Assembly: GCA_049319825.1 (NCBI GenBank)
Contig: JBMORT010000006.1
Coordinates: forward strand, 16,012-80,011
Source: Patescibacteria group bacterium
Lineage (GTDB): Bacteria; Patescibacteriota; Patescibacteriia; UBA11705; DATKZF01
DNA length: 64,000 nt
Direction of reading: 5' to 3'
Part shown: in pieces, positions 1 through 22,100 of the stretch
Layout: each line of letters begins with the position of its first letter
Position numbering within the stretch: position 1 is the stretch's first letter
Translations under genes and position numbers: made by a program
Notes under the pieces: model-generated
Seen by the model: the letters and a program-made list of their open reading frames with translations, nothing else
What the model was told of the DNA's origin: nothing
Database searches by the model: none

Positions 1-15
1 TCCTTTTTTTGTTAG

Positions 16-100
16 GAATCCGCTTGAGCCCGCAAAAAAGATTTGTAAGCTCAAGTGGATTTGGGAGCAGATGTGAGTGCTCCCGCGGGTGAGATTGGAG
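16..100. repeat. ~85-nt structured direct repeat, copy 1 (two conserved stem-loops)
   Basis: About 90% identical to 566..648. Stems gcttgagc/gctcaagy and gggagca/tgctccc are conserved; one stem position changes u-a to u-g, which keeps the structure. It lies immediately 3' of the minus-strand gene 108..335. Confidence 0.6.
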
Positions 101-107
101 ATGTTTT

Positions 108-335
108 TTATCTCCAGCGGTAGGTGAGGTTTTTTTGGAAGGCCCTTTCGCGCTCGAATCGGTCTCGGAGCGCGGCGGGGTTGAAGAGGAATTCGGAAAT
201 GAGCGCTCCTTTGCAATCCGCGGGAACGACACCCCACAGACTGCGGAGCATGCGGACATCCTCCTTTCCCATGAATTTCTTGTAAAGCTTAAAGACCAGA
301 ACTCCGAAGAAAGCCGTCGTGATCAGAAAAAACAT
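108..335 (-). CDS. hypothetical small protein with N-terminal hydrophobic segment (75 aa)
   Basis: ORF with AAGGAGA 4-5 nt upstream of the ATG (read on the minus strand). N-terminus MFFLITTAFFGVLVF looks like a TM/signal anchor. Local GC is elevated. No recognisable family. Confidence 0.45.
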   Translation of the reverse strand: MFFLITTAFFGVLVFKLYKKFMGKEDVRMLRSLWGVVPADCKGALISEFLFNPAALRDRFERERAFQKNLTYRWR

Positions 336-359
336 GTTATTCTCCTTATTGGTTGTTTA

Positions 360-425
360 GCGGCACCGGTGGGAGTCGAACCCACGCTCATCCCCGACGA
401 CCGGTTGACCGGCCGGACTACCCGT
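360..425 (-). tRNA. tRNA-like 3' fragment (T-arm GTGGG-TTCGACT-CCCAC plus acceptor 3' strand); no matching 5' acceptor strand, so partial/pseudo
   Basis: Minus-strand read: ...gcgtgggttcgactcccaccggtgccgc. The T-loop consensus is clear, but no complementary 5' strand or D-arm was found upstream. Typical of an att-site remnant. Confidence 0.3.
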
Positions 426-451
426 CCTTTTTATGTCGGGCGATGCCGTAA

Positions 452-556
452 TTACGAATTTACGAATCTTTACAAATGTTACGAATGGTTACGAATTAAT
501 CTTTTTGGGCAATATGTAACAATTTGTAACATTTGTACCGATATGTAATTTGTAAC
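452..556. repeat. iteron-like phased arrays: five TTACGAAT copies (452-496) then five TGTAAC-like copies (515-556), spaced about 9-10 bp
   Basis: Direct octamer copies start at 452, 460, 470 (degenerate), 479 and 489. TGTAAC/TGTACC/TGTAAT start at 515, 525, 534, 544 and 551. The two arrays share a GTTAC/GTAAC half-site in opposite orientation. Confidence 0.55.
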
Positions 557-565
557 TTCATGAAT

Positions 566-648
566 GAATCCGCTTGAGCTCGCAAAAGATTTGTAAGCTC
601 GAGTGGATTTGGGAGCAGGTGTGAGTGCTCCCAAGGGTGGGGTTGATA
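566..648. repeat. ~85-nt structured direct repeat, copy 2
   Basis: See 16..100. It lies immediately 3' of the minus-strand gene 662..1003. Confidence 0.6.
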
Positions 649-661
649 GGTGGGAAGAATG

Positions 662-1003
662 TCACAGGACGTCGGAGGCCAAGATCAGGTCACCGACGTG
701 GTACTTGTCGCCGTGGGAGATGGCGACGATGTACCCGGCGCACTTCGGATCGAAGCACGCCACGACCGCGTAGCGGTGGGCCAAGTGGTGCGCGAGCACC
801 ATGGCCACCGGCAGGGCGGCGGGCCCGTTGGTCAGCGCCATGGCCCCGCCCATCTCGGACGAAGCCTCCAGCTCCTTGATGCGGGCCTCGGCGTCCCGGA
901 CAACGACGTCGGTCGTGGCCGGATCGGCGAATCCGATCTTGAAGAGGGTGGCGGGGGCGGCGCCGACGTTGACGTTCGAGGTCTCGATTCTGTAGGTGGC
1001 CAT
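662..1003 (-). CDS. hypothetical protein (113 aa), GC-rich island gene
   Basis: Clean ORF at about 65% GC against about 42% in the surrounding sequence. GAAAGGGGGG lies 6 nt upstream of the ATG. Size is compatible with a roadblock/LC7-like fold, but this is not established. Confidence 0.6.
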   Translation of the reverse strand: MATYRIETSNVNVGAAPATLFKIGFADPATTDVVVRDAEARIKELEASSEMGGAMALTNGPAALPVAMVLAHHLAHRYAVVACFDPKCAGYIVAISHGDKYHVGDLILASDVL

Positions 1004-1062
1004 GATAGCCCCCCTTTCTTTTTTCTAAAATTTAGCCGCTGTGTCCGCCGGCGGCATGGCGT

Positions 1063-1188
1063 CCCGGAGCTTCCCCGAGATATTACAGCCCGGTTTATAA
1101 CGGCGTGGGTTGGCCGCGATTTACTATTTGAAGCGACAATGTCCGCCTGTCGCTTTAGCGCTCCGGAACCGCCCCGGAGTATTACAGC
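1063..1188. promoter_or_regulatory. two direct repeats CCGGAG..CCCCG(A/G)..ATTACAGC (1063-1089 and 1163-1188) in the intergenic region upstream of gene 662..1003
   Basis: The repeats are about 100 bp apart and both end in ATTACAGC. They are positioned like operator or promoter elements for the minus-strand gene. Confidence 0.3.
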
Positions 1189-1222
1189 TCCTTTTTACGA
1201 CATGAGTTGGTCGGGCAGTACT

Positions 1223-1804
1223 TTATTCCTCGCAAGTCGCCAGCTTCACGAGGAGCTCGGCCAAAGCCCGAATGGTCGGGCGGCTCGCGATCGGTTCTCC
1301 TCGCTCGAGGTGATGAACCGAGCCGCGGGCAATGCCGTCCTCCCCGAGCCGGGGAACGGCATCGTCGCTTCCATGATAGTCACTCCAGATCTCGGCGACG
1401 ACCTTGATCCGGAGCCGCTCGCAGAAGACGCGCCACTCGGCGAACCGCGAGGTATCGCCGGCGAACAGAATGGCGTGGGTGGCGGAGGCGCAGATCGCCT
1501 CGTTCTCGACGCTGGGGATGCCACCGATATCCACCAGCGTCAGCGGGAGTTGACAGTTTTTCACCGAGTCCGCCACCCGCTGGACGAACTCGGGGGTGAA
1601 CTTGGCCTTATATGCCGCTTTGCAAGCGGCGGCCAAGGTGGGGTCGTGTTCAACAGTTTCCTGGAACCACGCCCCCTCACCGTCCGGGCAACCGGTGATT
1701 ACGTATGGATACGGAGCGCCCGGAATGCTCCGCACCGTGTCCTTGATTCCCTGCCGCAGGCAGGACTTGCCGCTTCGCGGCGGCCCACAAAGGACGACCT
1801 TCAT
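1223..1804 (-). CDS. P-loop NTPase (Walker A GPPRSGKS; CobU/CobP-like P-loop), 193 aa
   Basis: Starts MKVVLCGPPRSGKS, with AAGGAG 6 nt upstream of the ATG at 1804. The ORF track's extra 15 N-terminal residues are probably not translated. LVDIGGIPSVEN resembles the CobU NEVGMGIVPEN region. GC is about 65%. Confidence 0.6.
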   Translation of the reverse strand: MKVVLCGPPRSGKSCLRQGIKDTVRSIPGAPYPYVITGCPDGEGAWFQETVEHDPTLAAACKAAYKAKFTPEFVQRVADSVKNCQLPLTLVDIGGIPSVENEAICASATHAILFAGDTSRFAEWRVFCERLRIKVVAEIWSDYHGSDDAVPRLGEDGIARGSVHHLERGEPIASRPTIRALAELLVKLATCEE

Positions 1805-2329
1805 GGTTTTCTCCTTGCCCAGGCAGGGCGAGTTTTTGGGTAAAAGCACCCTTGCTAATTTTCTTACATATCTTATATATAAGAATGCTGGCAGCGGTAC
1901 TCATAAAAAAAGCGACTGAGAGACACTCCCTAATTGGCGATAATCCGCATTGTCTGCGGTTTCAGCGTCTTAGAGAGATCTCCCAATCGCATTTGACGAT
2001 CAGTATCCATCGCTTCATGAGGCATCTAAGCAGACCTCAGCTTATAGCCTTATCCAACAACCCATTTAGCAAACCCTTGTTTGCACGGATAGAAGTGATG
2101 TGCCATTTTACCGAACGGCTGCGGCTCTCTCCATTTATATTTAATAGGGTATTATATCATATTAACAATGTTTTGTCAATGGGTAATAGCAATTTATTGT
2201 CTAAATTTAGATAAAAAATCAGAAAATCGTGTATTTTTACATAAAGCAACATAATACAGTTATAAAATTGACTATATCGACGAAAACATGCTAAATTACG
2301 TATGTAATTAATAAAAATTCTACAAAAAT

Positions 2330-5300
2330 ATGAAATTCGCCGAAGACAGAAAGCAGTTTCCAGCCAGAGAGGAAGAAATCATGGAGTTTTGGAAAAAAGA
2401 AAAAATATTTGAAAAATCGGTCAGCGAGCGGCCTGAAGATAATGCTTATGTCTTTTACGACGGCCCGCCATTTGCCACCGGCCTGCCGCACTACGGTCAC
2501 ATCGTCGCCAGCACGCTCAAAGATATTTTTCCGCGCTACCAGACGATGAGAGGCCACCGCGTCGAGCGGCGCTGGGGCTGGGACTGCCATGGTCTGCCGA
2601 TTGAAAATTTGGTGGAAAAAGAGCTGAATTTAAATTCCCGAAAAGACATCGAAGAATACGGCATTGACAAATTCAGCGAAGCCTGCCGCTCCAAAGTTTT
2701 ATTGTACGCCAACGAATGGAAAAAAATAATTCCGCGGCTGGGACGCTGGGTGGAGATGGATGATGATTATAAAACCATGGATCCCCAGTTTATGGAATCG
2801 GTTTGGTGGGTATTTAAGAGTTTATACGACAAAAAATTTGTTTACGAAGGCTACAAGAGCATGCATATTTGTCCGAGATGTGAAACAACGCTATCAAATT
2901 TTGAGGTGACTCAGGGGTATGTTGATGTTTTTGATATTTCCGTTACTTGTAAATTTGAGCTTTGGGAAAAGATCGATGATCAGACCGCTTACCTTTTGGC
3001 TTGGACGACAACACCTTGGACCTTGCCGGGCAACGTGGCGCTGGCAGTCGGATCGCCAATTGATTATGCCATCTGGAAAATGACCTCGTTGAAAAACGGG
3101 CAGACAGAGCTGGTGATTTTCGCCAATGCGCTTGAGTCAAAAGTTTTAGGTTTTTTGCCCGGCTATAGCGAAGGGAATAAACAATTTGTTACCGAATTTC
3201 CGAAAATAAAAGGAAAATACAAATTTGAATTGATAAGGACGATTAAAGGCGTTGAGCTGGAAGGTAAAAAATACAAGCCCTTGTTTGATTATTTCGTTCA
3301 TGAAAATTTACCCAACAAGGAAAATCTTTATCAAGTGGTGACCGCTGATTTCGTTTCCACTGAGGAAGGCACTGGCGTGGTGCATATTGCTCCGGCTTTC
3401 GGCGAGGATGATTTGAATCTTGGCAATAAAAAAAATCTGTCTTTTATCCAGCATGTCACTCCGGACGGCAAGTTCATCGATTTGGTAAATGATTTCGCCG
3501 GAGAAGAGGTCAAGCCCAAGGGCGACCCGTCTTCGACCGATTCGAAAATTATCGGCTTGCTTGATGATCAGGGCAAGGTGTTTCAAACCGCCGAATATGA
3601 ACACAGCTACCCGCATTGTTGGCGTTGCGACACTCCGCTGTTAAATTACGCCACGTCTTCTTGGTTCGTAAAGGTGACCGATATTAAGGAAAGGATGATT
3701 GAACTTAATGAGAATATCAATTGGATGCCGGCGCATTTAAAGCATGGGAGATTCGGAAAATGGCTGGAAAACGCGCGGGACTGGTCCATTTCCAGGACTC
3801 GCTATTGGGGCAATCCGATGCCGGTTTGGAAATGCACCTGCGGCGAGGTCAAGGTGCTGGGATCGAAAGCGGAGCTTGAGGAGCTTAGCGGCCAGAAAAT
3901 CGACGATCTCCATAAACACGTCTTAGATAAAATAATGTTTCCATGTAAAAAATGCGGCGGCGCCATGCAAAGAATCCCCGAGGTTTTCGATTGCTGGATG
4001 GAAAGCGGTTCAATGCCTTACGCGCAGGTTCATTACCCTTTTGAAAATAAAGAAAAATTCGAGAAAAATTTTCCGGCTGAATTCATCGCCGAGGGTGTCG
4101 ATCAGACTCGCGCTTGGTTTTATGTGCTGCATATTTTAAGCTCCATGCTGTTTGACAGCAACTGTTTTAAAAATGTTGTCGTCAACGGCATTGTCCTGGC
4201 CGAGGACGGTCAGAAAATGGCCAAGTCAAAGAAAAATTATCCCGATCCGATGGCCGTTGTCGATAAATACGGCAGCGACGCTTTGAGATTTTACCTGATG
4301 AGTTCCCCTGTGGTGCGGGCCGAAGATTTACGATTCAGCGAAAAAGGTGTCGATGAGGTTTATAAAAAAGTAATATTACTGGCATTGAATGTTTTGTCTT
4401 TTTATAAGATGTACGAGCCGAAAAAAAAGGATCCGGGTTTTTTGAGCGAAGATATTTTGGATATTTGGATTGTCAGCAAATTAAATCAACTGATAAGCGA
4501 GGTCACCAAGCAGTTTGACGCCTATGACCTGAACAAGGCGCTTAAGCCAATGGCCGATTTCATCAATGATTTATCAACGTGGTATCTGCGGCGGAGCCGG
4601 GAGCGCATCAAAGGAGGAACTCCCGACGATAAAAACGCGGCGCTGCAAACGTTATATCAAGTTTTACTGACTTTTTCCAAGGTGATTGCGCCGGTGATGC
4701 CGTTTATGTCCGAGTTGATTTACGACCGAATCGGTGGAGAAAAAAAGTCCGTTCATCTGGAAGATTGGCCGCAGGCGGTTGATCGGTCGATCGACCGATC
4801 AGTGTTGCTGTCCATGGACAAAGTTAAGGAAATAGTGGAGATCGGATTGGCTATCAGACAAATGCAAAAAGTGAAGGTGCGCCAAGCGCTGCTTCGATTG
4901 CAATTAACATATAAAAAATTGGCCCCGGCCTACTTGGATATAATTAAAGATGAACTAAATGTGAAAAATATTGAAATTGTGGACGATTTAACCTATGGGG
5001 ATTCCTGGCGAACCATCGAGGATTCTTCCGAACAGGTGGCGCTGGACGTGGCCATCACTCCCGAATTGAAGAAGGAAGGATTAATGCGCGAGATAATACG
5101 CTCGATCAATAATTTGCGAAAGAATTCCGGGTTAACCATCAGCGATAAAGTAAACGTATATTTTCAAACAGCTAGCTCGGAATTGTCCGAGGTGCTGCAA
5201 GCGGAGGAATATAAAAATGAGATATTGAAAAAAACTATCGCCCAAGACATTATTTCGGGAAAAGGCGGCGCCATCGAAAACTTTTCGGCCGAGTTATCAA

Positions 5301-5341
5301 TCGACGGGCAATTGATTTGGTTCGGGCTGTCGAAAATTTAG
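2330..5341 (+). CDS. ileS: isoleucyl-tRNA synthetase, type 2 (archaeal/eukaryote-like, 1003 aa)
   Basis: N-terminus FPAREEEIMEFWKK, HIGH-class motif PHYGHIVAS and KMSKS motif KMAKSKKN. Length is typical of type-2 IleRS. Confidence 0.95.
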   Translation: MKFAEDRKQFPAREEEIMEFWKKEKIFEKSVSERPEDNAYVFYDGPPFATGLPHYGHIVASTLKDIFPRYQTMRGHRVERRWGWDCHGLPIENLVEKELNLNSRKDIEEYGIDKFSEACRSKVLLYANEWKKIIPRLGRWVEMDDDYKTMDPQFMESVWWVFKSLYDKKFVYEGYKSMHICPRCETTLSNFEVTQGYVDVFDISVTCKFELWEKIDDQTAYLLAWTTTPWTLPGNVALAVGSPIDYAIWKMTSLKNGQTELVIFANALESKVLGFLPGYSEGNKQFVTEFPKIKGKYKFELIRTIKGVELEGKKYKPLFDYFVHENLPNKENLYQVVTADFVSTEEGTGVVHIAPAFGEDDLNLGNKKNLSFIQHVTPDGKFIDLVNDFAGEEVKPKGDPSSTDSKIIGLLDDQGKVFQTAEYEHSYPHCWRCDTPLLNYATSSWFVKVTDIKERMIELNENINWMPAHLKHGRFGKWLENARDWSISRTRYWGNPMPVWKCTCGEVKVLGSKAELEELSGQKIDDLHKHVLDKIMFPCKKCGGAMQRIPEVFDCWMESGSMPYAQVHYPFENKEKFEKNFPAEFIAEGVDQTRAWFYVLHILSSMLFDSNCFKNVVVNGIVLAEDGQKMAKSKKNYPDPMAVVDKYGSDALRFYLMSSPVVRAEDLRFSEKGVDEVYKKVILLALNVLSFYKMYEPKKKDPGFLSEDILDIWIVSKLNQLISEVTKQFDAYDLNKALKPMADFINDLSTWYLRRSRERIKGGTPDDKNAALQTLYQVLLTFSKVIAPVMPFMSELIYDRIGGEKKSVHLEDWPQAVDRSIDRSVLLSMDKVKEIVEIGLAIRQMQKVKVRQALLRLQLTYKKLAPAYLDIIKDELNVKNIEIVDDLTYGDSWRTIEDSSEQVALDVAITPELKKEGLMREIIRSINNLRKNSGLTISDKVNVYFQTASSELSEVLQAEEYKNEILKKTIAQDIISGKGGAIENFSAELSIDGQLIWFGLSKI

Positions 5342-5467
5342 AAATTCGCCACATACTGTTCGCGACGAATGTTAGATATTAGAAATTGGTTTTATGTTTT
5401 TCCGGTTTTTATTTTCGAGGACCAATGTCGAGCTTCGAAATAAAGACTTTTTACACGTTATTATTCT

Positions 5468-6826
5468 ATGCATGCTACATACGATGTTGCCATCGTCGGA
5501 GCCGGACCGGCCGGCCTTTTTGCCGCGTTAAAATTAATCGAAAGCCGATCCGATTTATCGGTGGTTTTAATTGAAAAAGGGAAGAAAGTGATGGATCGTG
5601 ATCGAAAAAACGTGATGAATGGCGTGGGCGGAGCCGGCACTTTTTCCGACGGTAAAGTTCATTTTACTCCCGTTTTGAGCATGGAAAAGATGCTCAATTT
5701 TTATTCGCGGAGCGAGTACCAGGAATTTTTAGATGAAGTTGACCGGGTGCTCACCCGTTTTGGCGTCGACGCTCCTTATTATCCGAAAGATTTGGACGAA
5801 GCCAGACAGCTGGTTGACCGCTGCAAAAAAGAAAGCATTCATTTGTTTGTCAGGAAAACAAGGCACATCGGCTCCGACAAGCTGCCCGAGGTGATTAAAA
5901 ATTTCGAGGATTATCTCTTGAATAAGGGCGTGAAATTTTTAACCGATAGAGAAGTGCTGGAGCTGTTAGTGGAAAACAATGTTTGTCGCGGGGTCAGACT
6001 GACCAACGGTGAAACGATTGGCGCCGATCAAGTGATTGTCGCTCCCGGCCGGATCGGCGCCCAGTGGCTTCAAAATATATGTAAAAATTTGGGTTTAAAA
6101 TACGATTACGATAAAGCGTTGGTCGGGGTACGAGTGGAATTCCCACATGGAATAATCAAAGAACACGCGGAGCTTTTATACGAAACAATTTATCTGATGT
6201 ATACCAAAACATTTGATGATGCCATCAGAACATATTGCCCATGCTCTCGAGGGAAAGTGGCGGTTGAAAATTATGACGGATTCGTGTGCGTCAACGGCCA
6301 TTCAAATTCAAATTACGATTCTGAAAATTCCAACTTCGCTTTTCTGTCGGAAATCCGTTTGACCGAGCCGGTTGAGAATACGATTCAATACGCCAAATCA
6401 ATCGCTCAGCTGGCCAATACCATCGGCGGCGGCAAACCGATTTTGCAGCGTTTGGTCGACCTTCGGTCCGGCCGGAGAAGCACTTGGCAAAGAATTAATA
6501 AAAGTTATGTTCGGCCGAGTTTGACCGAGGTAACTCCGGGTGATATCTCCATGGCGCTGCCGGGGAGAATTGTCACCAATATTGTCGAAGGATTGGCAAT
6601 GCTGGCCAGAGTATTGCCCGGCGTAGATTCCGGGCACACATTATTGTATGCGCCGGAAATAAAGTTGACCTCATCAAAGATCGAAACGGATAAATATTTG
6701 GAGACCACCATTAAAAATTTATTCGTCGCCGGCGATGGAGCCGGCGTCTCCGGCAATATCACGGGCGCCGCTTCGACGGGCATAATGGCCGCTTTGGGTA
6801 TATTAAAAAAAATAAATGATCGCTAG
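5468..6826 (+). CDS. FAD-dependent oxidoreductase (COG2509-like NAD(FAD)-utilising dehydrogenase)
   Basis: N-terminal Rossmann motif DVAIVGAGPAGLFAAL and C-terminal GDGAGVSG motif; 452 aa. Confidence 0.75.
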   Translation: MHATYDVAIVGAGPAGLFAALKLIESRSDLSVVLIEKGKKVMDRDRKNVMNGVGGAGTFSDGKVHFTPVLSMEKMLNFYSRSEYQEFLDEVDRVLTRFGVDAPYYPKDLDEARQLVDRCKKESIHLFVRKTRHIGSDKLPEVIKNFEDYLLNKGVKFLTDREVLELLVENNVCRGVRLTNGETIGADQVIVAPGRIGAQWLQNICKNLGLKYDYDKALVGVRVEFPHGIIKEHAELLYETIYLMYTKTFDDAIRTYCPCSRGKVAVENYDGFVCVNGHSNSNYDSENSNFAFLSEIRLTEPVENTIQYAKSIAQLANTIGGGKPILQRLVDLRSGRRSTWQRINKSYVRPSLTEVTPGDISMALPGRIVTNIVEGLAMLARVLPGVDSGHTLLYAPEIKLTSSKIETDKYLETTIKNLFVAGDGAGVSGNITGAASTGIMAALGILKKINDR

Positions 6827-6890
6827 CCGGTGGCTCATTATTGTCAAATGCCGTGAAAATAATATTGCTGCGAATCGATCGCATGTCTTG

Positions 6891-6920
6891 TTGATACAAT
6901 TATTCGCCAATACCTACAAT
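6891..6920 (+). promoter_or_regulatory. sigma70-like promoter candidate (TTGATA, about 18 nt spacer, TACAAT)
   Basis: The -35 element is at 6891-6896 and the -10 at 6915-6920, about 35 nt upstream of the GTG start at 6955. Confidence 0.3.
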
Positions 6921-6954
6921 AAATCATTCAATTAAAACACACCGGAGGCCAGCA

Positions 6955-7195
6955 GTGTCAGATAAAGCCGATGGTCGATTTACCATGGATGCTTTTGGGA
7001 TTTTTGCGCCCAAAGTCATTTTGCCCGTACCTGATTGGAAAAATCGAAGCGGAAGTTACCTTGCAGGTTTCATCCGTTAATATGCGGGCAACCAACGAGG
7101 TTGCCGCTCGTCAATCGGCGCAGGATGTCGTGTCGCAGCTGATAAAGGACAAGGCAAAACAAACCCTTTGTCGGTACAAATCGGTTTTTTGTTGA
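6955..7195 (+). pseudogene. frameshifted paralogue of the small protein encoded at 7314..7526
   Basis: Frame 1 (GTG 6955, GGAGG 6 nt upstream) gives DGRFTMDAFGIFAPKVILPVPD. The +1 frame continues with EVTLQVSSVNMRATNEVAARQ...; both parts align with the downstream gene product. The shift sits at the A5 run near 7039-7043. Confidence 0.45.
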
Positions 7196-7225
7196 ATAAG
7201 TTCAGCTTGTATATTTGATTCGCCC

Positions 7226-7254
7226 CTTGACGAAAACGATAAATTAATATAGAA
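7226..7254 (+). promoter_or_regulatory. sigma70-like promoter candidate (TTGACG, 17 nt spacer, TAGAAT)
   Basis: The -35 element is at 7226-7231 and the -10 at 7249-7254, about 60 nt upstream of the ATG at 7314. Confidence 0.4.
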
Positions 7255-7313
7255 TTTTGTATTGAGACGCTCGGGTCATCGCCGTGATTTACAGGGAAAA
7301 AGGAGGAACAGAC

Positions 7314-7526
7314 ATGCCGATGACTAAGGAAGGCGATCGATTTGTTCTTGATGCGTTTGCCAAATTTTTCGAGATTGTTATGGTGCCGACAGTCTCGGGC
7401 GAAGTTCCGGTAAAGTTCAGCTTCCAGATCACTGCCGCAAGAGTCACCGCCGACAATCAGGCCGCGGCCAAGGAAATTGTGTCTGTGGCGCTGGCTAAGT
7501 TGCTCGCGAGCAAGGAACAAAGCTGA
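7314..7526 (+). CDS. small hypothetical protein (70 aa)
   Basis: AAAGGAGGAACAGAC precedes the ATG at 7314 and a rho-independent terminator follows. It is paralogous to the frameshifted upstream copy. Confidence 0.7.
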   Translation: MPMTKEGDRFVLDAFAKFFEIVMVPTVSGEVPVKFSFQITAARVTADNQAAAKEIVSVALAKLLASKEQS

Positions 7527-7530
7527 TTGA

Positions 7531-7560
7531 CCGCTTGTAATACAAAGCGGTTTTTTTTTA
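7531..7560 (+). terminator. rho-independent terminator
   Basis: ccgctt/aagcgg stem followed by a T9 run. Confidence 0.7.
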
Positions 7561-7650
7561 AAAAAATTAAATAAATTTGCGGCTGAACAATAAGTCGTTC
7601 AATCCACGCGATTATTTGAAAATAAAAAGAGCCGGTAATGACCAGCTCCA

Positions 7651-8733
7651 CTATGTTGTCAGAAACACGCAGTCTTCCGCCATTGCGGAAACATCCTCGA
7701 TGGAAAACGGCGGATTATAAAAATGAATAATGGCGCCGCTCGGATGCCTGAACGGGGGTCTTTCGGCATTTCGAATTTTTTCAGATAACTTTTGAAAGAG
7801 AGAGTCCAGCCCCCCGACGCGGCTGTCGTTGTGAACCAGGTTAATGGCAATGTCAGTTTCATAAGGATTGTCATGGTTTTTATAGCTGATGACGATCAAA
7901 TGAACCGCCGGCTGATCCGCGTCATCTTCGTAGAAGTTTCGTTTGACATGATGACGCGTTTCATCGTGATTATACGGACAGTTTGGAATGATAATCATGC
8001 GCACGCCATGCAGGGTCGTTTGAAATCGAGCGGATTTTTGTTCGCGAAAGTATTGAGCGAATTCATTGGCTTTGATTTCATCTCTCAGCAGGGATTCGAT
8101 ATTTAGCAGATTATGGCGCATCACCGCTTCGTCGTCGCCGGGCAGATTATGAATCACTTTGCTCAGCAGGTCCAAGCCGCCGCGATCGATAATGACCGTC
8201 AGCGGCACGTTGATTGTGCCATCGCGAAATGCTTTTCGCAGAACCTCAGCGTTGCCTCTTCTGAGTTTGGCCGTCGATTCATCCTCGGCGCCGATGGCGC
8301 TGGCCGAATCGCGGAAGATGGCCAATCTGAGCAGTCGGCGGTAGATTTGGCGATCGGGCGGAATGAACCTTTCGCCGCCCCAAAAATGCTTGACGACCAC
8401 TTCGGCCGCGCATGAGTAAGTCAGATCCCGATGGTGGTCGAAATGGCCATTCAGCGGATCGGTTTGGCCGCCGGTGTCGACATGAAAAATTTTCAATGTG
8501 CCATCAACCAAACCGCGTCGGATTCTTTCTTGTCGTTCCGCGCAACTGTCGGAATCAACATTGTATGCGTCTCCCTTGGGCACAAAAATAAATTCGATTC
8601 GCGGATCATTGATTTCCAGACCCAAACCTTTGATCAATAGATAGCAGGAAATGACATTGTCATCATCGAGATTGCGATGTGTGACAATGATAATCGTTAA
8701 TAAACCTGCTAAGCGGCTGTTTTCCTCGGTCAT
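7651..8733 (-). CDS. DHH-family phosphoesterase-like protein (360 aa)
   Basis: Motif I-like HRNLDDDNVIS (H-x-N-x-D-x-D-x3-S) and GHFDHH (the DHH motif). AAGGAG lies 6 nt upstream of the ATG. The C-terminal domain is divergent. Confidence 0.45.
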   Translation of the reverse strand: MTEENSRLAGLLTIIIVTHRNLDDDNVISCYLLIKGLGLEINDPRIEFIFVPKGDAYNVDSDSCAERQERIRRGLVDGTLKIFHVDTGGQTDPLNGHFDHHRDLTYSCAAEVVVKHFWGGERFIPPDRQIYRRLLRLAIFRDSASAIGAEDESTAKLRRGNAEVLRKAFRDGTINVPLTVIIDRGGLDLLSKVIHNLPGDDEAVMRHNLLNIESLLRDEIKANEFAQYFREQKSARFQTTLHGVRMIIIPNCPYNHDETRHHVKRNFYEDDADQPAVHLIVISYKNHDNPYETDIAINLVHNDSRVGGLDSLFQKLSEKIRNAERPPFRHPSGAIIHFYNPPFSIEDVSAMAEDCVFLTT

Positions 8734-8858
8734 CTGCTGCTCCTTTTTAGTCAGGGTTGCGTATCAGCATACTATTTTTAACATTGTTTGTCAATATTTG
8801 TTCCGTCCGACGCAGATTGGTTGATTTTACGAACGAATTATGCTAAATTTAGTTTAAT

Positions 8859-10184
8859 ATGAATGATCAATCAAGAAAACTTGAACTGCTTTCTCCAGCC
8901 GGAAATTTGGAAAAATTAAAAACCGCGTTCGCCTTTGGCGCGGACGCGGTTTATTGCGGCGTCCCGGATTTTTCGCTCCGGGTTCGAATCAATGAATTTG
9001 ATTTGAATAGTCTGAAAGAAGGAATTGAATATGCGCACGGCCTGGGCAAGAAAGTTTATATCACGGTCAATATATTCGCCCACAATTTTCATCTGCCTGA
9101 GATTGAAAAATATTTGCTTGAACTTAAAAAGATAAACCCGGATGCCCTGATTGTATCCGATCCCGGAGTCTTGGCTTTGATTAAAGAAACATGGCCGGAC
9201 GTGGAAATTCATTTGAGCACGCAGGCCAACTGCACCAATTGGCGGGCGGCCAAGTTCTGGTTTGATCATGGAATAAAAAGAATCATCCTTGGGCGCGAAG
9301 TTACTTTGGATCAGATCAAACAAATTCACGAAAAGGTTCCCCAAGTTGAATTGGAATGTTTCGTTCACGGAGCCATGTGCGTGTCGTATTCGGGCCGGTG
9401 CCTTTTGTCAAAATATTATATGGACAAAAGCGCGAATCTGGGAGACTGCGTGCAGCCGTGCCGCTGGAAATATGAGATAGGCAATAGGCCAGCCTGCGCC
9501 GAGGCTTCGGCTGGCAGGCAGGTGGGCAATGGTATTTTTGTTGAAGAAGTCAAGCGGCCCGGAGAATTGCTGGAGATGGATGAAGATGAGCACGGGACAT
9601 ATGTAATGAATTCCAAGGATTTATGTTTGCTTGAATATTTAAAAGAATTGGCTGATGCCGGAGTTTCTGGTTTTAAGATCGAAGGCCGGGCGAAGAGCGT
9701 TTATTATGTGGCCAATACTGCAAAAGTATATCGACAAGCAATTGACATGATTGATGATTGGGATGAAATTAAAGTTCAGGAATTAAAGAATGAATTAAAG
9801 AAAAATATTAATCGAGGATTCACGACCGGGTTTTTGTTTGGCAGAGATAATGCGGAGCAAAGGTATGAAAGCGGGCATGAGGCTTGCGAGTGGGAGTTCG
9901 TTGGAACAATTATAGGCAGTCGGCAAGAGGCGGCCTGCCTGACCGGCAGGCAGGTGGGCAATAGTGTAGCGGTGAGAGTGCACAATTGTTTGAGAGTCGG
10001 AGACGAAGTGGAATTGGTGGTGCCGGTTGGGGAAAATTTTACAATGAAGATAAGTGAGATGTTTGATGCCCGGACCGGCGAAGCCTTGAGCGAAGCTCAT
10101 GGCGGGCAAGATAAAGAAATTTTAATTCTAATTGAAAATCAATTGCCGGAATTTACAGTGTTGAGAAAAAAAGTTACAATCTAA
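8859..10184 (+). CDS. peptidase U32 family protein (collagenase-like, YhbU/RlhA-type)
   Basis: N-terminus LELLSPAGNLEKLKTAFAFGADAVYCG is typical of U32; 441 aa. Confidence 0.85.
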   Translation: MNDQSRKLELLSPAGNLEKLKTAFAFGADAVYCGVPDFSLRVRINEFDLNSLKEGIEYAHGLGKKVYITVNIFAHNFHLPEIEKYLLELKKINPDALIVSDPGVLALIKETWPDVEIHLSTQANCTNWRAAKFWFDHGIKRIILGREVTLDQIKQIHEKVPQVELECFVHGAMCVSYSGRCLLSKYYMDKSANLGDCVQPCRWKYEIGNRPACAEASAGRQVGNGIFVEEVKRPGELLEMDEDEHGTYVMNSKDLCLLEYLKELADAGVSGFKIEGRAKSVYYVANTAKVYRQAIDMIDDWDEIKVQELKNELKKNINRGFTTGFLFGRDNAEQRYESGHEACEWEFVGTIIGSRQEAACLTGRQVGNSVAVRVHNCLRVGDEVELVVPVGENFTMKISEMFDARTGEALSEAHGGQDKEILILIENQLPEFTVLRKKVTI

Positions 10185-10906: not shown

Positions 10907-11998
10907 ATGGTTGTCGCTGAATCAGCTGACATAGTTTCCTGGGAGGGTTTTAACCAGACTCTAAAGTCGGGTTCGCTTTTGCAATCCTGGAATTGGGGCG
11001 AATTTCAGAAAGAGAGGCAGCAAAAGATTTGGCGGCTGGAAGTTAAAGACGGCGAAAAGACTTTGGCGCAGATGTTTTTTTGGCAGCATCGGTATCTGAT
11101 CGGCCAGAATGGGCTTTATTGCCCGCGCGGGCCGGTGGTGACCGATGAGATTTTAAATGATCAAGAAAAATTAGCCGAGGTTTTGAAATTGCTTTTTGAT
11201 CGCGTCCGCCAAATAGCCAAAGAAAACAAAGCTTTGCTTTTTAGAATCGATCCCAATGTGATAATTGACCTTGGAAATGCGGCTGATAAGGATTTTTGGC
11301 GAAAAAATCTGGCAGTGGATGAAGAAAAAATTTGGCCGGATATTTTTGAAAAACAAGGTTTGAAAAAATCAAAGCGCGAAGTCCAGCCCGCGCATACCAT
11401 CATGCTCGATATTTCAAAGTCGGAAGAAGAATTGCTGGCTGATATGAATCAAAAGACCAGATATAACATCAGGCTGGCTGAGAAAAGGGGAGTCGAGATT
11501 ATTGAATCAAATGACGCCAAAGCCTTTTTCGAATTGCTCAAGCAAACCACTTCCCGCCAAAAGTTCGGCGCTTATCCGCTCAAGTATTTTGAAGATATTT
11601 TAAAATTTGATTTTTCGAAATTGTATTTGGCCAAGTACGCAGGCAAATTCATTGCCGGAATTTTGTGCGTGTATTATGGAAAGGTGGCCACATATCTTTT
11701 CGGCGCGTCCTCGGATGAGTATCGAAACGTCATGGCCCCGCATCTTTTGCAGTGGCGCGCGATCCTGGACGCGAAAAAAGCGGGATTTGATATTTATGAT
11801 TTTTGGGGAGCCGCGCCCGCGGAGTCGAAGGTCAAGCAAGAGCAGTCTTGGCAGGGCATTACCAGATTCAAGCAGGGCTTTAATCCGCTCCAGCCGATAT
11901 TTCAGTATTTGGGCTGTTATGAGATGGTTTTCCGGCCAGTAATGCTGAGAATTTGGGATTTGGGTTACAAGATGTACAAGATTTTGCGTACGAGATAG
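10907..11998 (+). CDS. FemAB-family aminoacyl-tRNA-dependent peptidoglycan transferase
   Basis: 363 aa with a Fem-like pattern. The C-terminus (...WDLGYKMYKILRTR) is encoded by the first copy of the downstream 63-bp tandem repeat. Confidence 0.75.
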   Translation: MVVAESADIVSWEGFNQTLKSGSLLQSWNWGEFQKERQQKIWRLEVKDGEKTLAQMFFWQHRYLIGQNGLYCPRGPVVTDEILNDQEKLAEVLKLLFDRVRQIAKENKALLFRIDPNVIIDLGNAADKDFWRKNLAVDEEKIWPDIFEKQGLKKSKREVQPAHTIMLDISKSEEELLADMNQKTRYNIRLAEKRGVEIIESNDAKAFFELLKQTTSRQKFGAYPLKYFEDILKFDFSKLYLAKYAGKFIAGILCVYYGKVATYLFGASSDEYRNVMAPHLLQWRAILDAKKAGFDIYDFWGAAPAESKVKQEQSWQGITRFKQGFNPLQPIFQYLGCYEMVFRPVMLRIWDLGYKMYKILRTR

Positions 11999-12133
11999 TA
12001 CCAGATAAAAGATGAACTATTTTTGGGTTACAAGATGTACAAGATTTGTCATACGAGATAGTACCAGATAAAAGATGAACTATTTTTGGGTTACAAGATG
12101 TACAAGATTTGTCATACGAGATAGTACCAGATA
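11962..12133. repeat. 63-bp tandem repeat, about 2.7 copies (gggttacaagatgtacaagattt...)
   Basis: Copies start at 11962, 12025 and 12088, and are near-identical. Copy 1 overlaps the femAB-like stop codon. Confidence 0.8.
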
Positions 12134-16132: not shown

Positions 16133-19100
16133 TTGAAGAGTAGGCGGATTTCAAAACATTTGATGAATTCCCGAAATTCAAATTTCCACAAAACAAAGAA
16201 GACAAGGAACCGAAAGCTTGTTGTGTTTTTAATACTGGCAATGATTTTTAACTTGTCTTATTTTAATATTTCGTCAAAGCCGGCCGAGGCCGCGGCCAGC
16301 CAGTTCATCAATTATCAGGGCAAGCTGCTTGATACCAGCGGAATTGAGGTTGATAACGGTCAGTATCATGTTAGATTTAAAATGTACAATGCCGGAACCG
16401 GCGGCTCTCTGCTGTGGTCTGAAAGCTGGGATAACACCACTACTACGGCAACGGTCGATGCGGGATTATTCACTTTAAAATTGGGAGAAGTTAATCCTTT
16501 TCCGGCGACCTTGGATTTCCAAACAGAAAGCGAATACTGGTTGAGCGTGGAAATCGGCGGCTCCGGAGCGACGCCGACTTGGGATGGAGAGATGACGCCG
16601 AGAAAGGAAATTACCGCGGTGGCCTACGCGATGAACGCCGATAAACTTGACGGCAAGAGCGAGGAAGAGTTTGCCGATTTGAGCGAAGACGAAACGATCA
16701 CCGGGCAATACACGCATGACGTGGATGTATTTGACGGCGCGGCGTTAACGACAATTATCAACGCTTCAGACGATAACAGCGTGGACACTTTTTCTTCTTT
16801 GCAAGCCGACGCGGTGCAAAATTCCAATGACGGAGATAATTTATACGGCATATACGTCACGAATTTGCAGGGAACAGCCTCCACCGGCAATGAATACGCG
16901 ATATATCAAGCCGGCACCGGCTGGGATTACGGGTTGTATGTGGAAGATCAGGCGTATTTGGGACAAAATTTGCGCTTTAGCAGCAATTTCGATGTAAAGA
17001 ATACTATTATTGCCAGTGTGAATATAATGGATGTGCAGTCCATTGGAACGAACTCAATGGCTTTCCGAGTAATACCGGGCACAGCTCCCGCTTATTCGGC
17101 GCTGGGAGAAACGCAAGCTTCATTTTTCGAATTTCATCGAAATTCCAGCGGTACGGACAGAATGCTGCTGACTGCGCCGACCAATGCCACCAATGGCTAT
17201 CAATTTGTATCCTACGCCGCGCTTCCGGCGACTCCGGGGCCTTTCTCCTTCGGGTTTACCACCAGTTTGGCCGCGCCGCCGACTAAAGTCATGAATATTT
17301 TCAACACTGGGTCGGTTGGCATTAATACTTTTGGGCCGGATGCCAAGCTGGATGTGTTGGCCACATCTGGTGAGCAATTACGGCTGACATACACGGATGG
17401 TTCGGTTTATACCGGCTTCACCGTCAATTCGGACGGAGATTTGATTGTCGATGCCACCGGCAGTGATATTCGGCTCGCGACCGGAGATAATTTATGGGTC
17501 GCTTCATCGGCTGACATTGTGATTGGCAATACTTATCTAGGTGAATCTACCGCTCAGATCGATAGCGGCGCGTATAATGTGGGAGTGTATAACGGCAATT
17601 TAACATACTCGACCAATACGAATGTTCAGCAGGTGCTTGAAGATTTGGATACGGCGATTGGTTCCGCCGGCAGCAAATGGACGGATGCGGGAAGTTACAC
17701 TTATTTAACGGCTACGACCGATAATTTAGTAGTGGGTTCAAACGCGACGGCTGATGCTGAGTTATTTATGGACGTTGCTGATAAACGGTTACACATCGGC
17801 AGCGGATATATTGATTTCGATTTTACAGGTTCCGGCAACACGGCTGTCGGAGATGATTCTTTATATTCCATTACTAATGGTACCCATAATTCATCTATTG
17901 GTTATCAAGCCATGTACTATTTGACATCTGGCTATGACAATACGGCACTGGGATATCAGGCATTAAGAATAGACAGTTCCGGAACTGGAGGACAATCTTT
18001 TGGCAACACAGCCATTGGTAGTTTAGCTTTATCCAGTATTAATACATCCGCGGCTGTGTACAATACCGCTATCGGCGTTTCATCACTCCAGAATAATACG
18101 ACAGGTTTGGCAAATACTGCTATCGGTGCGTTAGCACTCGATTCAAATGTCATTGGTGCATCCAATGTCGCTTTAGGTTATTCAACACTTCAGGCGAATG
18201 TCAGCGGAGATTATAACGTAGCTTTAGGTGCAGAGGCACTAGACTCATTGACCTCTGCAGATGCTAATATTGCCATCGGTTACAAGGCTATGGATTCAAC
18301 AACGACTGGTCAGTATAACGTGGCATTAGGCCATCAATCTCTGCGAGCTAATATTAGCGCCGACTATTCTACAGCACTGGGCTATCAGGCGCTCTACAGC
18401 AATACGGCGTCGAATATCACAGCCGTGGGCGCGCAAGCCATGTACTCAAACGGCACGGGAACAGAAAATGTGGCGATGGGTTATCAATCACTATATTCAA
18501 ACGACTCAGGCGATCAGCACACAGCAATCGGCTATCAATCATTGTACTCATTATCGGCGAATGTGGATGATAATACAGCTGTTGGATACAGAGCAATGTA
18601 TTCGAATTTAGCTGGAGGTCAGAGCACAGCTATCGGTTCGCAGGCACTTTATAACGCGTTGGCGCCGGGCTACAGCACGGCAGTGGGCTACCAAGCTTTA
18701 TACGCGACCACGACCGGAGATTACAATATCGCCGTGGGAAACCAATCGATGGTAGCCAATACGACGGGCAGCGACAACGTCTCTATTGGAGTAAATGCGC
18801 TGGATTCAAACACTACGGGAAATTACAATATAGCGATCGGCCGCCAATCGCTGCAGGCAAACATTAGTGCCGACTATTCTACAGCACTGGGCTATCAGGC
18901 GCTCTACAGCAATACGGCGTCGAATATCACAGCCGTGGGCGCGCAAGCCATGTACTCAAACGGCACGGGAACAGAAAATGTGGCGATGGGTTATCAATCA
19001 CTATATTCAAACGACTCAGGCGATCAGCACACAGCAATCGGCTATCAATCATTGTACTCATTATCGGCGAATGTGGATGATAATACAGCTGTTGGATACA

Positions 19101-22100
19101 GAGCAATGTATTCGAATTTAGCTGGAGGTCAGAGCACAGCTATCGGTTCGCAGGCACTTTATAACGCGTTGGCGCCGGGCTACAGCACGGCAGTGGGCTA
19201 CCAAGCTTTATACGCGACCACGACCGGAGATTACAATATCGCCGTGGGAAACCAATCGATGGTAGCCAATACGACGGGCAGCGACAACGTCTCTATTGGA
19301 GTAAATGCGCTGGATTCAAACACTACGGGAAATTACAATATAGCGATCGGCCGCCAATCGCTGCAGGCAAACATTAGTGCCGACTATTCTACAGCACTGG
19401 GCTATCAGGCGCTCTACAGCAATACGGCGTCGAATATCACAGCCGTGGGCGCGCAAGCTTTATACTCTAATACATCTGGTACAGGAAACGCCGCTTTAGG
19501 GTACCAGTCTCTATATTCCAATACTTCGGGAAATAACAATTCCGCCTTTGGTTATCAGTCATTGTTCAGTCATGCCTCTGGTAATGATGGTAATACAGCA
19601 ATGGGATATCGTTCAATGTATTCAATGACCGCGGGAGCGTTAAATACATCAATCGGAACAGAGGCTTTATACAGCGCTTTAAGCACGTCGGGAAATGTGG
19701 CAATCGGTTATCGCGCTGGTTATTTTGAAACCGGAAACAATCGTTTATTTATTGATAACAATTCACGATCTGACGAAGCTACCGGAAGGGTAAGATCTTT
19801 AATTTATGGCGAATTTGCCTCTGCAACCGCCGATCAATTATTAAGAATAAACGGATTGACTCAAATTCAAGGTCATTTGATACCATACCAAGATAATTTT
19901 TATAATATCGGATCCGCAGATTACCGTTGGAATAATTTATATGTGGATGATGCTTATGTGTTAAAAGGAGCGACGAATATCAATTTAGAGTCCAGCGGCA
20001 CCCCAACAACATCTGGAGCATATGCTATTGGAGCCAATGATGAGTTTACATACTCAGATTCGACTAATGTTCAGGATGTTCTAGATGATTTGGATGCAGC
20101 ATTGGCTTCCGCCGGCAGCAAATGGACGGATGCGGGAGACTTCACTCACTTAACCTCAACAATCGATGACGTGGTGATCGGCGCGTCAACCACTGAAGAC
20201 GCGGTGTTCTGGTTTGATGTAACGGATAACGCGGAAAAGTTTTCAATTGACGCGTCATCGGACGCGCATACCACCGCCGCGCTTGATATTGATTTTCGCG
20301 GCGATGCCAATAATTTAAAAGTGGTTGATATATATGCCGGATCAGCCAGCGGTCTATCTGCCAATTCATTTCTGTTCGGACAATCAATTACTTTAGGATA
20401 TAACGCCGGTGACGCGGCGGGCACTTATCGAATCGCCAACAATGTTGACGTGAACGGCACTAACGCTACTTCAGATATAATTGGATACGCTTTTTTCGAT
20501 AATACTCAAACCGGACAAGATGGGTTATCCGGTGTCGGGTCGGCGACCGGAGCTTATTCGCTGATTTCTCATTCCGGCAGCGGCAGTTTGACCGGTTTTC
20601 AAAATTATTTGTGGCACACGGGCAGTGGCAGCGTTACCGGATTCGGCGGATCGACATCTAGTTCCGGCAGCGGCACAGTTTATGCCGCCAACCCGCAGGT
20701 TTATGGTTTGTCCGGATTTTCCGGTTCGCTTTACGGCTATCGAACATCCATGACCAACAGCAGCGGTTCTACACAGAACATGCTGGGTTTTGATATAAAT
20801 GTGACCAATAATGCCGGCGCTTCGGCCGACAGTTTATGGGGAGGCAAAATAACGGTAAAGGCTTCGGGGACGGAAGATACCGCCGCTTACGGATTGCAGG
20901 TGGTTTCCGATACTGATTTAATTGATAGTTTGATTAATTTGGCGGTCGTCAACGGCGGCTCGGCCGGTTATGGTTTTGATATGAATGGCGCGACAATCGC
21001 GACCGCGGATATCAGATTGTCCAACGGATCAACAATAGATAATCTGACATCAACGGTCGTTGCTTTCAGTGACGGTATCAGAATCGGAAACACTGCGGAC
21101 ACCACGGCCGGAAACATCCGCTGGTCCGGCGCGGATTTTGAGGGCTATAACGGCGCGGGTTGGCAGAGCCTGACATCCGGCGGCGGATCACTCTGGACAG
21201 ATGCCGGCACATACACTTACCTGACGGCCACGCAGGATGATTTGCTCGTCGGTTCAAGTAATAATGCCAGCCGGCCGCTTTATTTCGATGTCAGCAACAT
21301 GTCGCTGGAAATCGGATCGGGCGACACGTTAAACGCCCGGCTTTATATGTATTCGCAGGATGGGGATTCCGGATTGATCGAATATGCCGCTTCGGATCGA
21401 TTTGAATTTTACGATCAGATTTGGGTTCAGGGTTATATTGATTTCGATAACGCTTCCGCCGATACGGCTGTCGGTTACGTGGCTCTGAATTCCAATACCA
21501 CCGGCACCGATAATTCGGCTTTCGGTTACCAAGCGCTCGTCAGCAATACTACGGGTTCATATAATACCGGCATCGGCGCATCCTCATTGATCAGCAACAA
21601 CACCGGATTGGCTAATACGGCCTTGGGAGCTTCTTCATTGTTCTCCAATCAAGGAGGGTCGAATAATACCGCCATCGGCGTCAGCGCCTTATATTCGAAT
21701 GTTTCCGGTGCCAGCAATGTGGCGATCGGTTCCGGTGCTCTAGGTGCGAGCGTCGGAGAAGATTATAATGTGGCCATCGGCGCGGCCGCGCTGGCTAACA
21801 GTTCCGGCGGTACCGCCAACTCGGTAATCGGTTTTCAGAGTTTAACCAATAATATAATTGGAGATTATAATTCCGCCTTGGGTTATCGGTCTCTTTATAA
21901 TGCCACCGGCGATTATAATGTGGCTATCGGTTCTGACTCATTATTTTCGAACATTAACGGAGACAGCAATATCGCCATCGGCTCATACGCCGGATACCAT
22001 GAAACGGGCAGCAATACTTTATATATAGACTCTATTTATCGCTCTAATGAGGCTGATGGCCAGGTAAAGTCGCTAATCTATGGAGAATTCGCCTCAGCCA

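Follow-up and report, generated by a model that had tools for sequence, protein, structure and literature searches.

Organization of the locus

The window analysed here is a stretch of 64,000 nt (64 kb) from contig JBMORT010000006.1 of a member of Patescibacteria (the candidate phyla radiation, or CPR), and near its left end are two leftwards-transcribed genes coding for a 193-aa P-loop NTPase and a 113-aa Csx3/Crn3-type (CARF-like) protein. A preliminary description of the window had recognised both proteins, on the minus strand and each with its own ribosome-binding site (RBS), and these gene calls stand. The NTPase gene (1804..1223) starts with MKVVLCGPPRSGKS at 1804 and has the RBS AAGGAG; the Csx3 gene (1003..662) follows after a spacer of 220 nt (1222..1004). 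The pair sits at the right-hand end of a stretch of foreign composition that is at least 2.6 kb long and lies in the chromosome beside ileS, and the remainder of the window is ordinary chromosome encoding isoleucyl-tRNA synthetase (IleRS), UvrABC, ribosomal proteins S7 and S12, NDK and ComEC.

The two genes as a split Csx3-AAA

Judged by sequence, the two genes are separately encoded halves of the type III CRISPR accessory protein Csx3-AAA. Together they cover the PADLOC Csx3-AAA profile (PDLC01045) end to end, with the 113-aa protein matching positions 12–98 in the N-terminal third (E 2e-17) and the NTPase, the 'AAA' half, matching positions 108–285 of 286 (E 1e-55). The NTPase also matches the PADLOC model AAA-Csx3 (C3a67; E 5e-32) and is 37.6% identical to the matching region of Slr7080 from Synechocystis plasmid pSYSA, a Csx3-AAA protein for which co-fractionation with the type III complex of CRISPR3 has been reported (PMC8136920). 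Both Csx3-AAA and AAA-Csx3 are accessory families of type III systems, and neither has a known function (PMC6546367, PMC12409355). Most of 80 related loci are split in the same way as here. The 64-kb window contains no cas genes or CRISPR arrays, the remainder of the genome lying outside the search, and the CPR are largely devoid of CRISPR-Cas (PMC4742961).

The NTPase contains a Walker A motif (GPPRSGKSC), a CPDGEG loop, a VDIGG (DxxG) motif at the Walker B/G3 position and an HxLERGE motif. Family-wide invariants are GPPxSGKSC, CPDGEGxW, DxGG, N101, T109-H110, HxLERGE and R175, and the motifs are without variation across 46 CPR-type and 29 other homologues. An AlphaFold2 model (pLDDT, the per-residue confidence score, of 88) has as its best Foldseek matches the GPN-loop GTPases Npa3 and PAB0955, MinD, SRP GTPases and P-loop kinases (E 2e-4 to 1e-3; TM scores 0.4–0.5), such that the predicted fold appears nearest to the GPN-loop/SIMIBI NTPases and not to AAA+, CobU or Ras. 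It is not itself a GPN-loop GTPase, as the loop is CPDGEG instead of GPN, the equivalent of the G4 motif is LAGD and not NKxD, and the TM scores to that family are 0.41–0.49. The CobU/CobP-like identity initially suggested for this protein finds no Pfam or NCBIfam match at E ≤ 1, and CobU is absent from the top 50 structural neighbours in the PDB. A Ras-like GTPase of the MglA type paired with a roadblock protein, which had been offered speculatively, does not fit either, the structural neighbours being SIMIBI/GPN-loop proteins and kinases and the NKxD motif being absent.

The 113-aa protein is named Csx3 by NCBI. It matches Pfam PF09620 (Cas_csx3) with 26.1 bits against a gathering score of 21, in an alignment spanning only residues 69–107, and the PADLOC Csx3 models with E values from 2e-17 to 4e-5. 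A profile built from Csx3 proteins of the CPR aligns along its whole length (hhalign, E 6e-41) with the stand-alone Csx3 of Anabaenopsis, whose locus contains type III RAMP genes of several families along with a WYL regulator that is CRISPR-associated, and weakly (E 0.12) with the crystallised Csx3 of Archaeoglobus fulgidus (AfCsx3; 6yud/3wzi). Csx3 is a Mn-dependent ring nuclease acting on cyclic tetra-adenylate (cA4) and using H57, H60, D69, R71 and H80 (PMC7371418). By the weak profile alignment and by residue spacing, H72, H76, D85 and H97 correspond to AfCsx3 H57, H60, D69 and H80, and in the same alignment an invariant Lys87 takes the place of R71. Of 67 homologues, 44 are of the CPR type and 23 are not; the four residues are kept in 41 or more of the former and in 21 or more of the latter. 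In Foldseek the structural model (pLDDT 77) has STAS domains and the CARF domain of Cat1 in its cA4-bound form as its closest matches. No roadblock fold is among these matches, and the roadblock/LC7/MglB identity was set aside in favour of Csx3 on the evidence of Pfam, PADLOC and hhalign.

Several observations weigh against a predicted function like that of AfCsx3. The score against the NCBIfam equivalog TIGR02579 is 20 bits where the cutoff is 55.4, and AfCsx3 itself is not returned by Foldseek for the model. G45 and I49, the cA4-contacting residues of AfCsx3 that are described as absolutely conserved, and R71 are replaced by T/V, A62 and K. Instead of G45/I49 the motif N59-G60-P61 is conserved, and the CRISPR-linked, NTPase-associated Csx3 proteins of cyanobacteria are alike in both respects.

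Composition and extent of the GC-rich island

The segment from 640 to 1850 has a GC content of 62.6%, whereas 1.2-kb windows past position 2500 have a mean of 45.8% (standard deviation 3.8, maximum 54.7; z = 4.4). In a sliding-window analysis the 1.2-kb window starting at 601 is also the most deviant in tetranucleotide composition (distance 0.613 from the rest, median 0.314). The anomaly pointed out in the preliminary description is real, with values of 62.6% against about 46% rather than ~65% against ~42%, and the stretch is compositionally foreign. The GC excess is located at synonymous sites, the GC content at third codon positions (GC3) being 0.78 in the NTPase gene and 0.93 in the Csx3 gene, compared to 0.42–0.59 in 23 other long open reading frames (ORFs) of the window.

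Abrupt GC jumps had been described at about 650 and about 1850. The right border is indeed sharp, the GC content falling from 0.65 at 1770–1829 to 0.30 at 1830–1889. The step at ~600–650 is real locally (0.33–0.40 up to 0.57–0.63) but is only an AT-rich intergenic stretch and not the left end of the island, because GC-rich coding sequence continues leftwards with a 75-aa ORF with a hydrophobic N-terminus (p75; 335..108, GC 52%, GC3 0.67) and with the sequence of a Logan contig of run SRR32167788 (L001). This contig is 100% identical to window positions 1–9938 and reaches 787 bp further left, and the additional sequence contains a 192-aa gene within a 500-bp window of 71% GC; p75, which is called as a gene on the contig, has no family match in Pfam, NCBIfam, PADLOC or PHROGs. 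The island is cut by the left edge of the window.

A GC step this abrupt and this near to the window edge could also arise if a high-GC piece of another organism were mis-joined to a CPR contig during assembly. The same junction is present in the independently assembled Logan contig, with coding sequence unbroken across it, and the transition from a low-GC host to a high-GC pair is found in dozens of metagenome-assembled genomes (MAGs) from unrelated studies, with both flanks seen in two of them (L004 and L091). The recurrence of the pattern and the independent assembly of the junction make such a chimera very unlikely.

Distribution and gene neighbourhoods of related pairs

Databases contain more than 1,000 relatives of the NTPase, which is represented by ~660 clusters at 50% identity among 1.84 billion proteins, and even among 5.8 billion database proteins the closest relative reaches no more than 79% identity; Csx3 is far less conserved. 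The two genes are directly adjacent, in either order, at 71 of 80 loci in species-representative genomes, and the same pair, GC-enriched and without Cas10, is present in more than 40 CPR species genomes. Relatives at 60–80% identity are from the CPR and have no Cas10 or RAMP genes within ±10 kb, while those at ~50% identity are cyanobacterial and have Cas10, RAMP proteins and a WYL regulator as their neighbours. The sole exception among the close relatives is a Desantisbacteria MAG from outside the CPR (L035), which has RAMP families nearby.

Genes near the CPR pairs (83 non-redundant loci) include those of a divergent TrmB regulator with host-like GC content (36 genes), HD_4 hydrolases (19), and bpMoxR together with a VWA protein and a protein of ~650 aa (11). 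Helicase, Fic, PIN and HicA genes also occur, and PADLOC recognises no known defence system around these loci. In two MAGs both borders of a GC-rich island are visible. One island (L004 9000–19500) contains Csx3, the NTPase, a 610-aa protein, bpMoxR, VWA and a 653-aa Cys-rich protein, and is situated between murG and the Mur ligase gene murC inside the cell-wall synthesis and division (dcw) gene cluster; the other (L091 5200–11700) is a cleanly bounded island of ~6 kb with the NTPase–Csx3 pair, a Fic protein and a 742-aa protein. In a second arrangement, found in the TrmB region of five loci (L050, L053, L056, L061 and L074), TrmB is flanked on one side by a GC-rich Csx3 gene and on the other by an HD_4 gene and a longer (~250-aa) paralogue of the NTPase with host-like GC content. 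A further locus (L033) has a TrmB that is 84–90% identical to those of the second arrangement, yet it carries the GC-rich type of NTPase.

The GC enrichment is shared across the CPR clade, in which GC3 is mostly 0.55–0.82 for the NTPase and 0.64–0.98 for Csx3, with host values of 0.27–0.6; in the locus L048, for example, GC3 is 0.32 for the host, 0.82 for the NTPase and 0.98 for Csx3. Cyanobacterial relatives have no GC3 excess. The elevation extends over entire islands of 6–10 kb, with 55–61% GC compared to ~43% outside in L004 and 58–72% compared to 31–41% in L091. Deviant composition with sharp borders, a trait of integrative islands, is seen at the right border of the window and at both borders of these two islands.

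Origin of the island

Close homologues in related low-GC genomes had been named in the preliminary description as counting against its reading. Homologues at 70–79% identity do occur in many low-GC CPR genomes, and a one-off recent insertion is therefore too simple an account of the island. The pair probably belongs to a pool of exchangeable cassettes that are moved by horizontal transfer and recombination among CPR lineages (a probability of roughly 0.6), and such exchange would account for the foreign composition. Hosts with TrmB proteins that are 84–90% identical have NTPases that are just 56–58% identical, and the islands occupy different settings, with ileS as the neighbour here, murG and murC on either side in L004, and TrmB nearby elsewhere. 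Within the CPR clade the identity of each NTPase to that of the window is inversely related to the identity of the adjacent Csx3 (rho −0.37, n = 40, p = 0.02); the best NTPase matches have the poorest Csx3 matches and vice versa, so that the pair in the window is a mosaic. The cassettes would often adjoin a TrmB regulator and would carry MoxR–VWA, HD_4, Fic or toxin genes.

A number of results count against cassette exchange. No integrase or recombinase is encoded within window positions 1–2300, within the additional 787 bp of the Logan contig or among 92 proteins from GC-rich neighbourhoods, and the sequence covering the right part of the island has no mobility gene, att site or flanking repeat; at the borders of the L091 island the only candidate for att repeats is a 14-nt A-rich match. 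No recent donor is visible, the closest relative being 79% identical, and a GC3 of 0.9 should have decayed if the genes had been resident for long. Synteny of the pair with TrmB is seen in many genomes that are deeply diverged, which fits old vertical inheritance as well, and the host markers available for a co-phylogeny test (TrmB and a protein of ~830 aa) are saturated at 22–36% identity, making that test uninformative.

The module could instead be old and mostly vertically inherited in the CPR, with its GC content actively maintained, either through selection acting on the DNA or mRNA or through GC-biased gene conversion at a hot spot of recombination, a reading that is unlikely but deserves serious weight. 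Its relatives form a star-like set at ~70–80% identity with no near-identical donor among the 5.8 billion proteins, the synteny with a TrmB of host-like GC content holds in 28–36 deeply diverged genomes, the GC3 of the pair partly tracks that of the host while always being offset upwards, and frequent recombination, which provides biased gene conversion with its substrate, is implied by the mosaic structure. Maintenance sits poorly with the very different cassettes held by closely related hosts, with the varied chromosomal contexts of the islands and with the cyanobacterial homologues that lack the excess; moreover, the paralogue with host GC content in L050, L053, L056 and L061 means that high GC is not obligatory for the family. 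Far less probable is the proposal of the preliminary description, that an element had integrated at a tRNA gene and brought with it an NTPase of the CobU or Ras type and a roadblock partner resembling MglB. The GC step, the tRNA-like piece and repeats beside the genes, the DxxG motif and the GTPases among the structural neighbours are all compatible with it, but the partner is Csx3, there are no CobU, Ras or MglA matches, no integrase was found, and the tRNA-like element is non-canonical and situated inside the island. A tRNA gene directly abuts the pair at 2 of 36 related loci (Leu-taa at L029 9629–9711 and Asp-gtc at L040 3224–3300, both upstream of the NTPase gene), and the 'classic footprint' of an integrated element is not supported in the part of the island that was covered. 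A phage or plasmid origin of the island was also considered and rejected: searches of IMG/VR, phage records, PHROGs and BFVD yield no phage or plasmid cargo relatives, and the plasmid matches are cyanobacterial CRISPR plasmids only.

Proposed function

The best reading of the locus is an exchangeable, CRISPR-independent Csx3–NTPase nucleotide-signal module. By homology with Crn3, Csx3 dimers would bind a ligand resembling a cyclic oligoadenylate between stacked dimers, and the bound nucleotide might be hydrolysed by the His72/His76/Asp85/Lys87/His97 set. The partner NTPase would be coupled to ligand binding, and would either be the regulated output or itself control the assembly of Csx3; Shah et al. 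proposed that Csx3 controls the ATPase allosterically (PMC6546367). The NTPase is an obligate partner and is under much stronger constraint than Csx3, which, together with the CRISPR-free loci, suggests that the pair functions without Cas10. In the CPR the signal would come from something other than Cas10, as no nearby Cas10 can supply it, and the frequent HD_4 and MoxR–VWA neighbours hint at a nucleotide-signalling conflict system (PMC7159879). Counting against this scheme, the function of the pair is wholly inferred and no cyclase was identified.

A different role, as an anti-defence ring nuclease that is carried by a mobile element and destroys cyclic-oligoadenylate alarm signals in the manner of viral AcrIII-1, would suit the foreign composition and the lack of a cognate CRISPR locus nearby, and viruses and plasmids are known to use ring nucleases (PMC8284326, PMC12409355). 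It is improbable, given that there are no relatives in IMG/VR viral contigs, phage records or BFVD structures and no PHROG match, that the plasmid matches include only cyanobacterial CRISPR plasmids and that the related islands lack mobility and phage genes; the invariant pairing with a highly conserved NTPase would also be left without explanation.

As a more speculative combination, which we consider doubtful, a CRISPR-independent nucleotide-signal module, possibly feeding MoxR–VWA, may be held at a GC3 of 0.8–0.98 in genomes of 35–45% GC by a non-mutational force such as biased gene conversion or selection. If so, the island would be a maintained property and not the scar of a recent transfer. 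The recurrence of the GC3 excess of one cassette over dozens of low-GC genomes is an unusual compositional pattern, and it could serve to separate rapid cassette exchange from biased gene conversion in the CPR, whose genome dynamics are poorly known. The CPR also offer hundreds of CRISPR-free, split examples of Csx3 with its 'AAA' partner, and the pair is a clean system for asking about the role of the NTPase.

Noncoding elements

Reading along the minus strand, the order of elements is the NTPase gene, motif A, motif B, the Csx3 gene, double hairpin 2, an iteron-like palindrome, a tRNA-like element, the RBS and p75, double hairpin 1, the RBS and 192-aa gene, and motif C. Motifs A and B are the paired direct repeats ending ATTACAGC that had been reported in the intergenic region and are confirmed there: both are on the minus strand within the spacer between the NTPase and Csx3 genes, have the form GGGCwGTAATAy followed by a 6–8-bp hairpin, are 38 nt long and 71% identical to each other. 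Motif A (1195..1158) begins 27 nt past the NTPase stop codon and motif B (1096..1059) is ~55 nt ahead of the Csx3 gene; a third copy, motif C (89%), is outside the window on the Logan contig (L001 10554–10591), 28 nt past the stop codon of the 192-aa gene. A compensatory change from U·G to A-U in the hairpin can be read directly from the motif copies. The repeats do not form a CRISPR array, being merely 71% identical with a 61-nt spacing, and Tandem Repeats Finder found no array.

The structured repeat of 85 nt described earlier is present as two copies of ~82 nt, both of them double hairpins. Copy 1 (97..16, minus strand; fold z = −8.0) follows the p75 stop codon just before the RBS of the 192-aa gene, and copy 2 (645..566, minus strand; z = −6.6) directly follows the Csx3 stop codon. 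The copies are 90–95% identical, and a pattern of their 45-nt core matches twice where zero matches are expected by chance. An integron attC identity was rejected, since a core-site-like GTTAGGA can be read beside one copy only. The iteron-like arrays are also as described; they are AT-rich and unstranded (452–497 and 510–556), with a period of about 10/19 and units of ~10 bp (TTACGAAT and ATTTGTAAC), and together (452..556) they constitute an imperfect palindrome with 41-nt arms that are 78% complementary.

The tRNA T-arm and acceptor fragment reported to the left of the genes corresponds to a tRNA-like structure at 447..361 on the minus strand, ending ~20 nt before the p75 start codon and directly 5′ of the p75 RBS. 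A 7-bp acceptor stem and a perfect T arm (GTTCGAnTC) are present where they had been placed, but the element is not a canonical tRNA: it has no anticodon loop, its central domain is a branched stem with a tetraloop, its score against the Rfam tRNA model is 16.4 bits compared to a gathering score of 29, and ARAGORN does not call it at default settings and does so only at relaxed thresholds and with mismatches. Its predicted folding energy is −45.1 kcal/mol (z = −2.7). Lying inside the island, it does not mark a boundary of the att type. No tRNA, tmRNA or other Rfam family scores above threshold for 361–447 or for the repeats.

The regular placement of these elements at gene ends suggests sites of transcript punctuation, stabilisation or processing. 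Judged by position only, the double hairpins, the GTAATAT-hairpin motifs and the tRNA-like element most likely serve to punctuate a single polycistronic transcript or to stabilise segments of it, and the tRNA-like element could be a processing signal of the RNase P/Z type. BLAST and nhmmer do not find the noncoding elements of the window in related islands; the L091 island has an intergenic repeat of its own, 32 nt in length and 91% identical between its copies at 7085 and 8511.

A further noncoding region lies between ileS and the NTPase gene. A perfect sigma-70 promoter (2179..2151, minus strand; TTGACA–17–TATAAT with an upstream TG) precedes a conserved noncoding RNA of ~235 nt (2140..1895) that ends in a hairpin and a U7 run at ~1930–1905. 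The region 1895–2179 has no Rfam family match, and homologues of the RNA are found only in L042 (3375–3545, 250 nt upstream of the NTPase gene) and L054 (4872–5017, away from the pair). A riboswitch-like leader of the NTPase gene was considered and rejected, the RNA being present in only 3 of 62 sources and not consistently beside the pair.

Other features of the window

Elsewhere in the window a single rightwards-transcribed ORF of 5,008 aa spans 16133–31159 (GC 0.50). A 63-nt tandem repeat (2.8 copies, 97% matching) at 11959–12133 covers the 3′ end of an ORF (10907–11998) and the sequence just beyond it, and a perfect 36-nt tandem duplication (2.1 copies, 43557–43630) is located within an ORF at 43163–43690. 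The leftwards-transcribed gene at 40305–43142 encodes a 945-aa UvrA-like protein whose C-terminal half, an ABC ATPase, gives strong matches to PADLOC mad3 and mad8 (E 4e-96 and 4e-45); a MADS defence assignment was rejected, as these look like cross-hits to UvrA.

Relationship to known systems

The MoxR-vWA NTP-dependent conflict systems (Kaur, Burroughs, Iyer and Aravind 2020, PMC7159879) are related to the pair by neighbourhood only: bpMoxR (PF20030) and VWA genes follow it within the same GC-rich island at ~11 CPR loci, whereas the available sequence of this genome contains no MoxR or VWA genes and no beta-propeller or known effector was identified.

The NTPase shares with the GPN-loop/SIMIBI NTPases (Npa3, PAB0955, MinD and SRP/FtsY) a Walker A motif, a DxxG motif after strand 3 and a conserved x-P-(D/N)-G loop after strand 2. 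It differs in having TM scores of just 0.4–0.5 to them, CPDGEG in place of the GPN loop and no NKxD specificity motif, and P-loop kinases score nearly as high, so that any assignment of its class and substrate is tentative. The modelled fold is not AAA+ despite the name used in the literature, which indicates that the 'AAA' domain of Csx3-AAA is mislabelled as AAA+ and probably resembles a P-loop protein of the SIMIBI/GPN-loop or kinase type.

The 113-aa protein resembles A. fulgidus Crn3/Csx3 (AF_1864; PDB 3WZI, 6YUD) in length (113 and 110 aa), in a predicted CARF/STAS-like fold and in the aligned H/H/D/H set. It differs in the weakness of the profile match, in having Lys for R71, in the loss of G45 and I49, in one added residue between the two His residues and in always being paired with an NTPase; its activity is predicted from sequence.

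The closest known relatives of the pair are the Csx3-AAA and AAA-Csx3 proteins (clusters 35 and 67 of Shah et al.; Synechocystis Slr7080, CYB_0599 and Caur_2269), with which it shares both domains and the AAA-then-Csx3 order, and the family-invariant motifs of both halves are common to the pair and the CRISPR-linked cyanobacterial members. In contrast to these proteins, the halves are encoded here by two genes with a structured spacer and separate RBSs, no Cas10, RAMP genes or CRISPR array is nearby, the phylum is mostly without CRISPR, the pair is strongly GC-enriched over its host, and the related CPR loci have TrmB, MoxR–VWA and HD_4 genes as neighbours in place of cas genes. What is new at this locus is a split and apparently CRISPR-independent form of a known accessory module that is recurrently GC-enriched.

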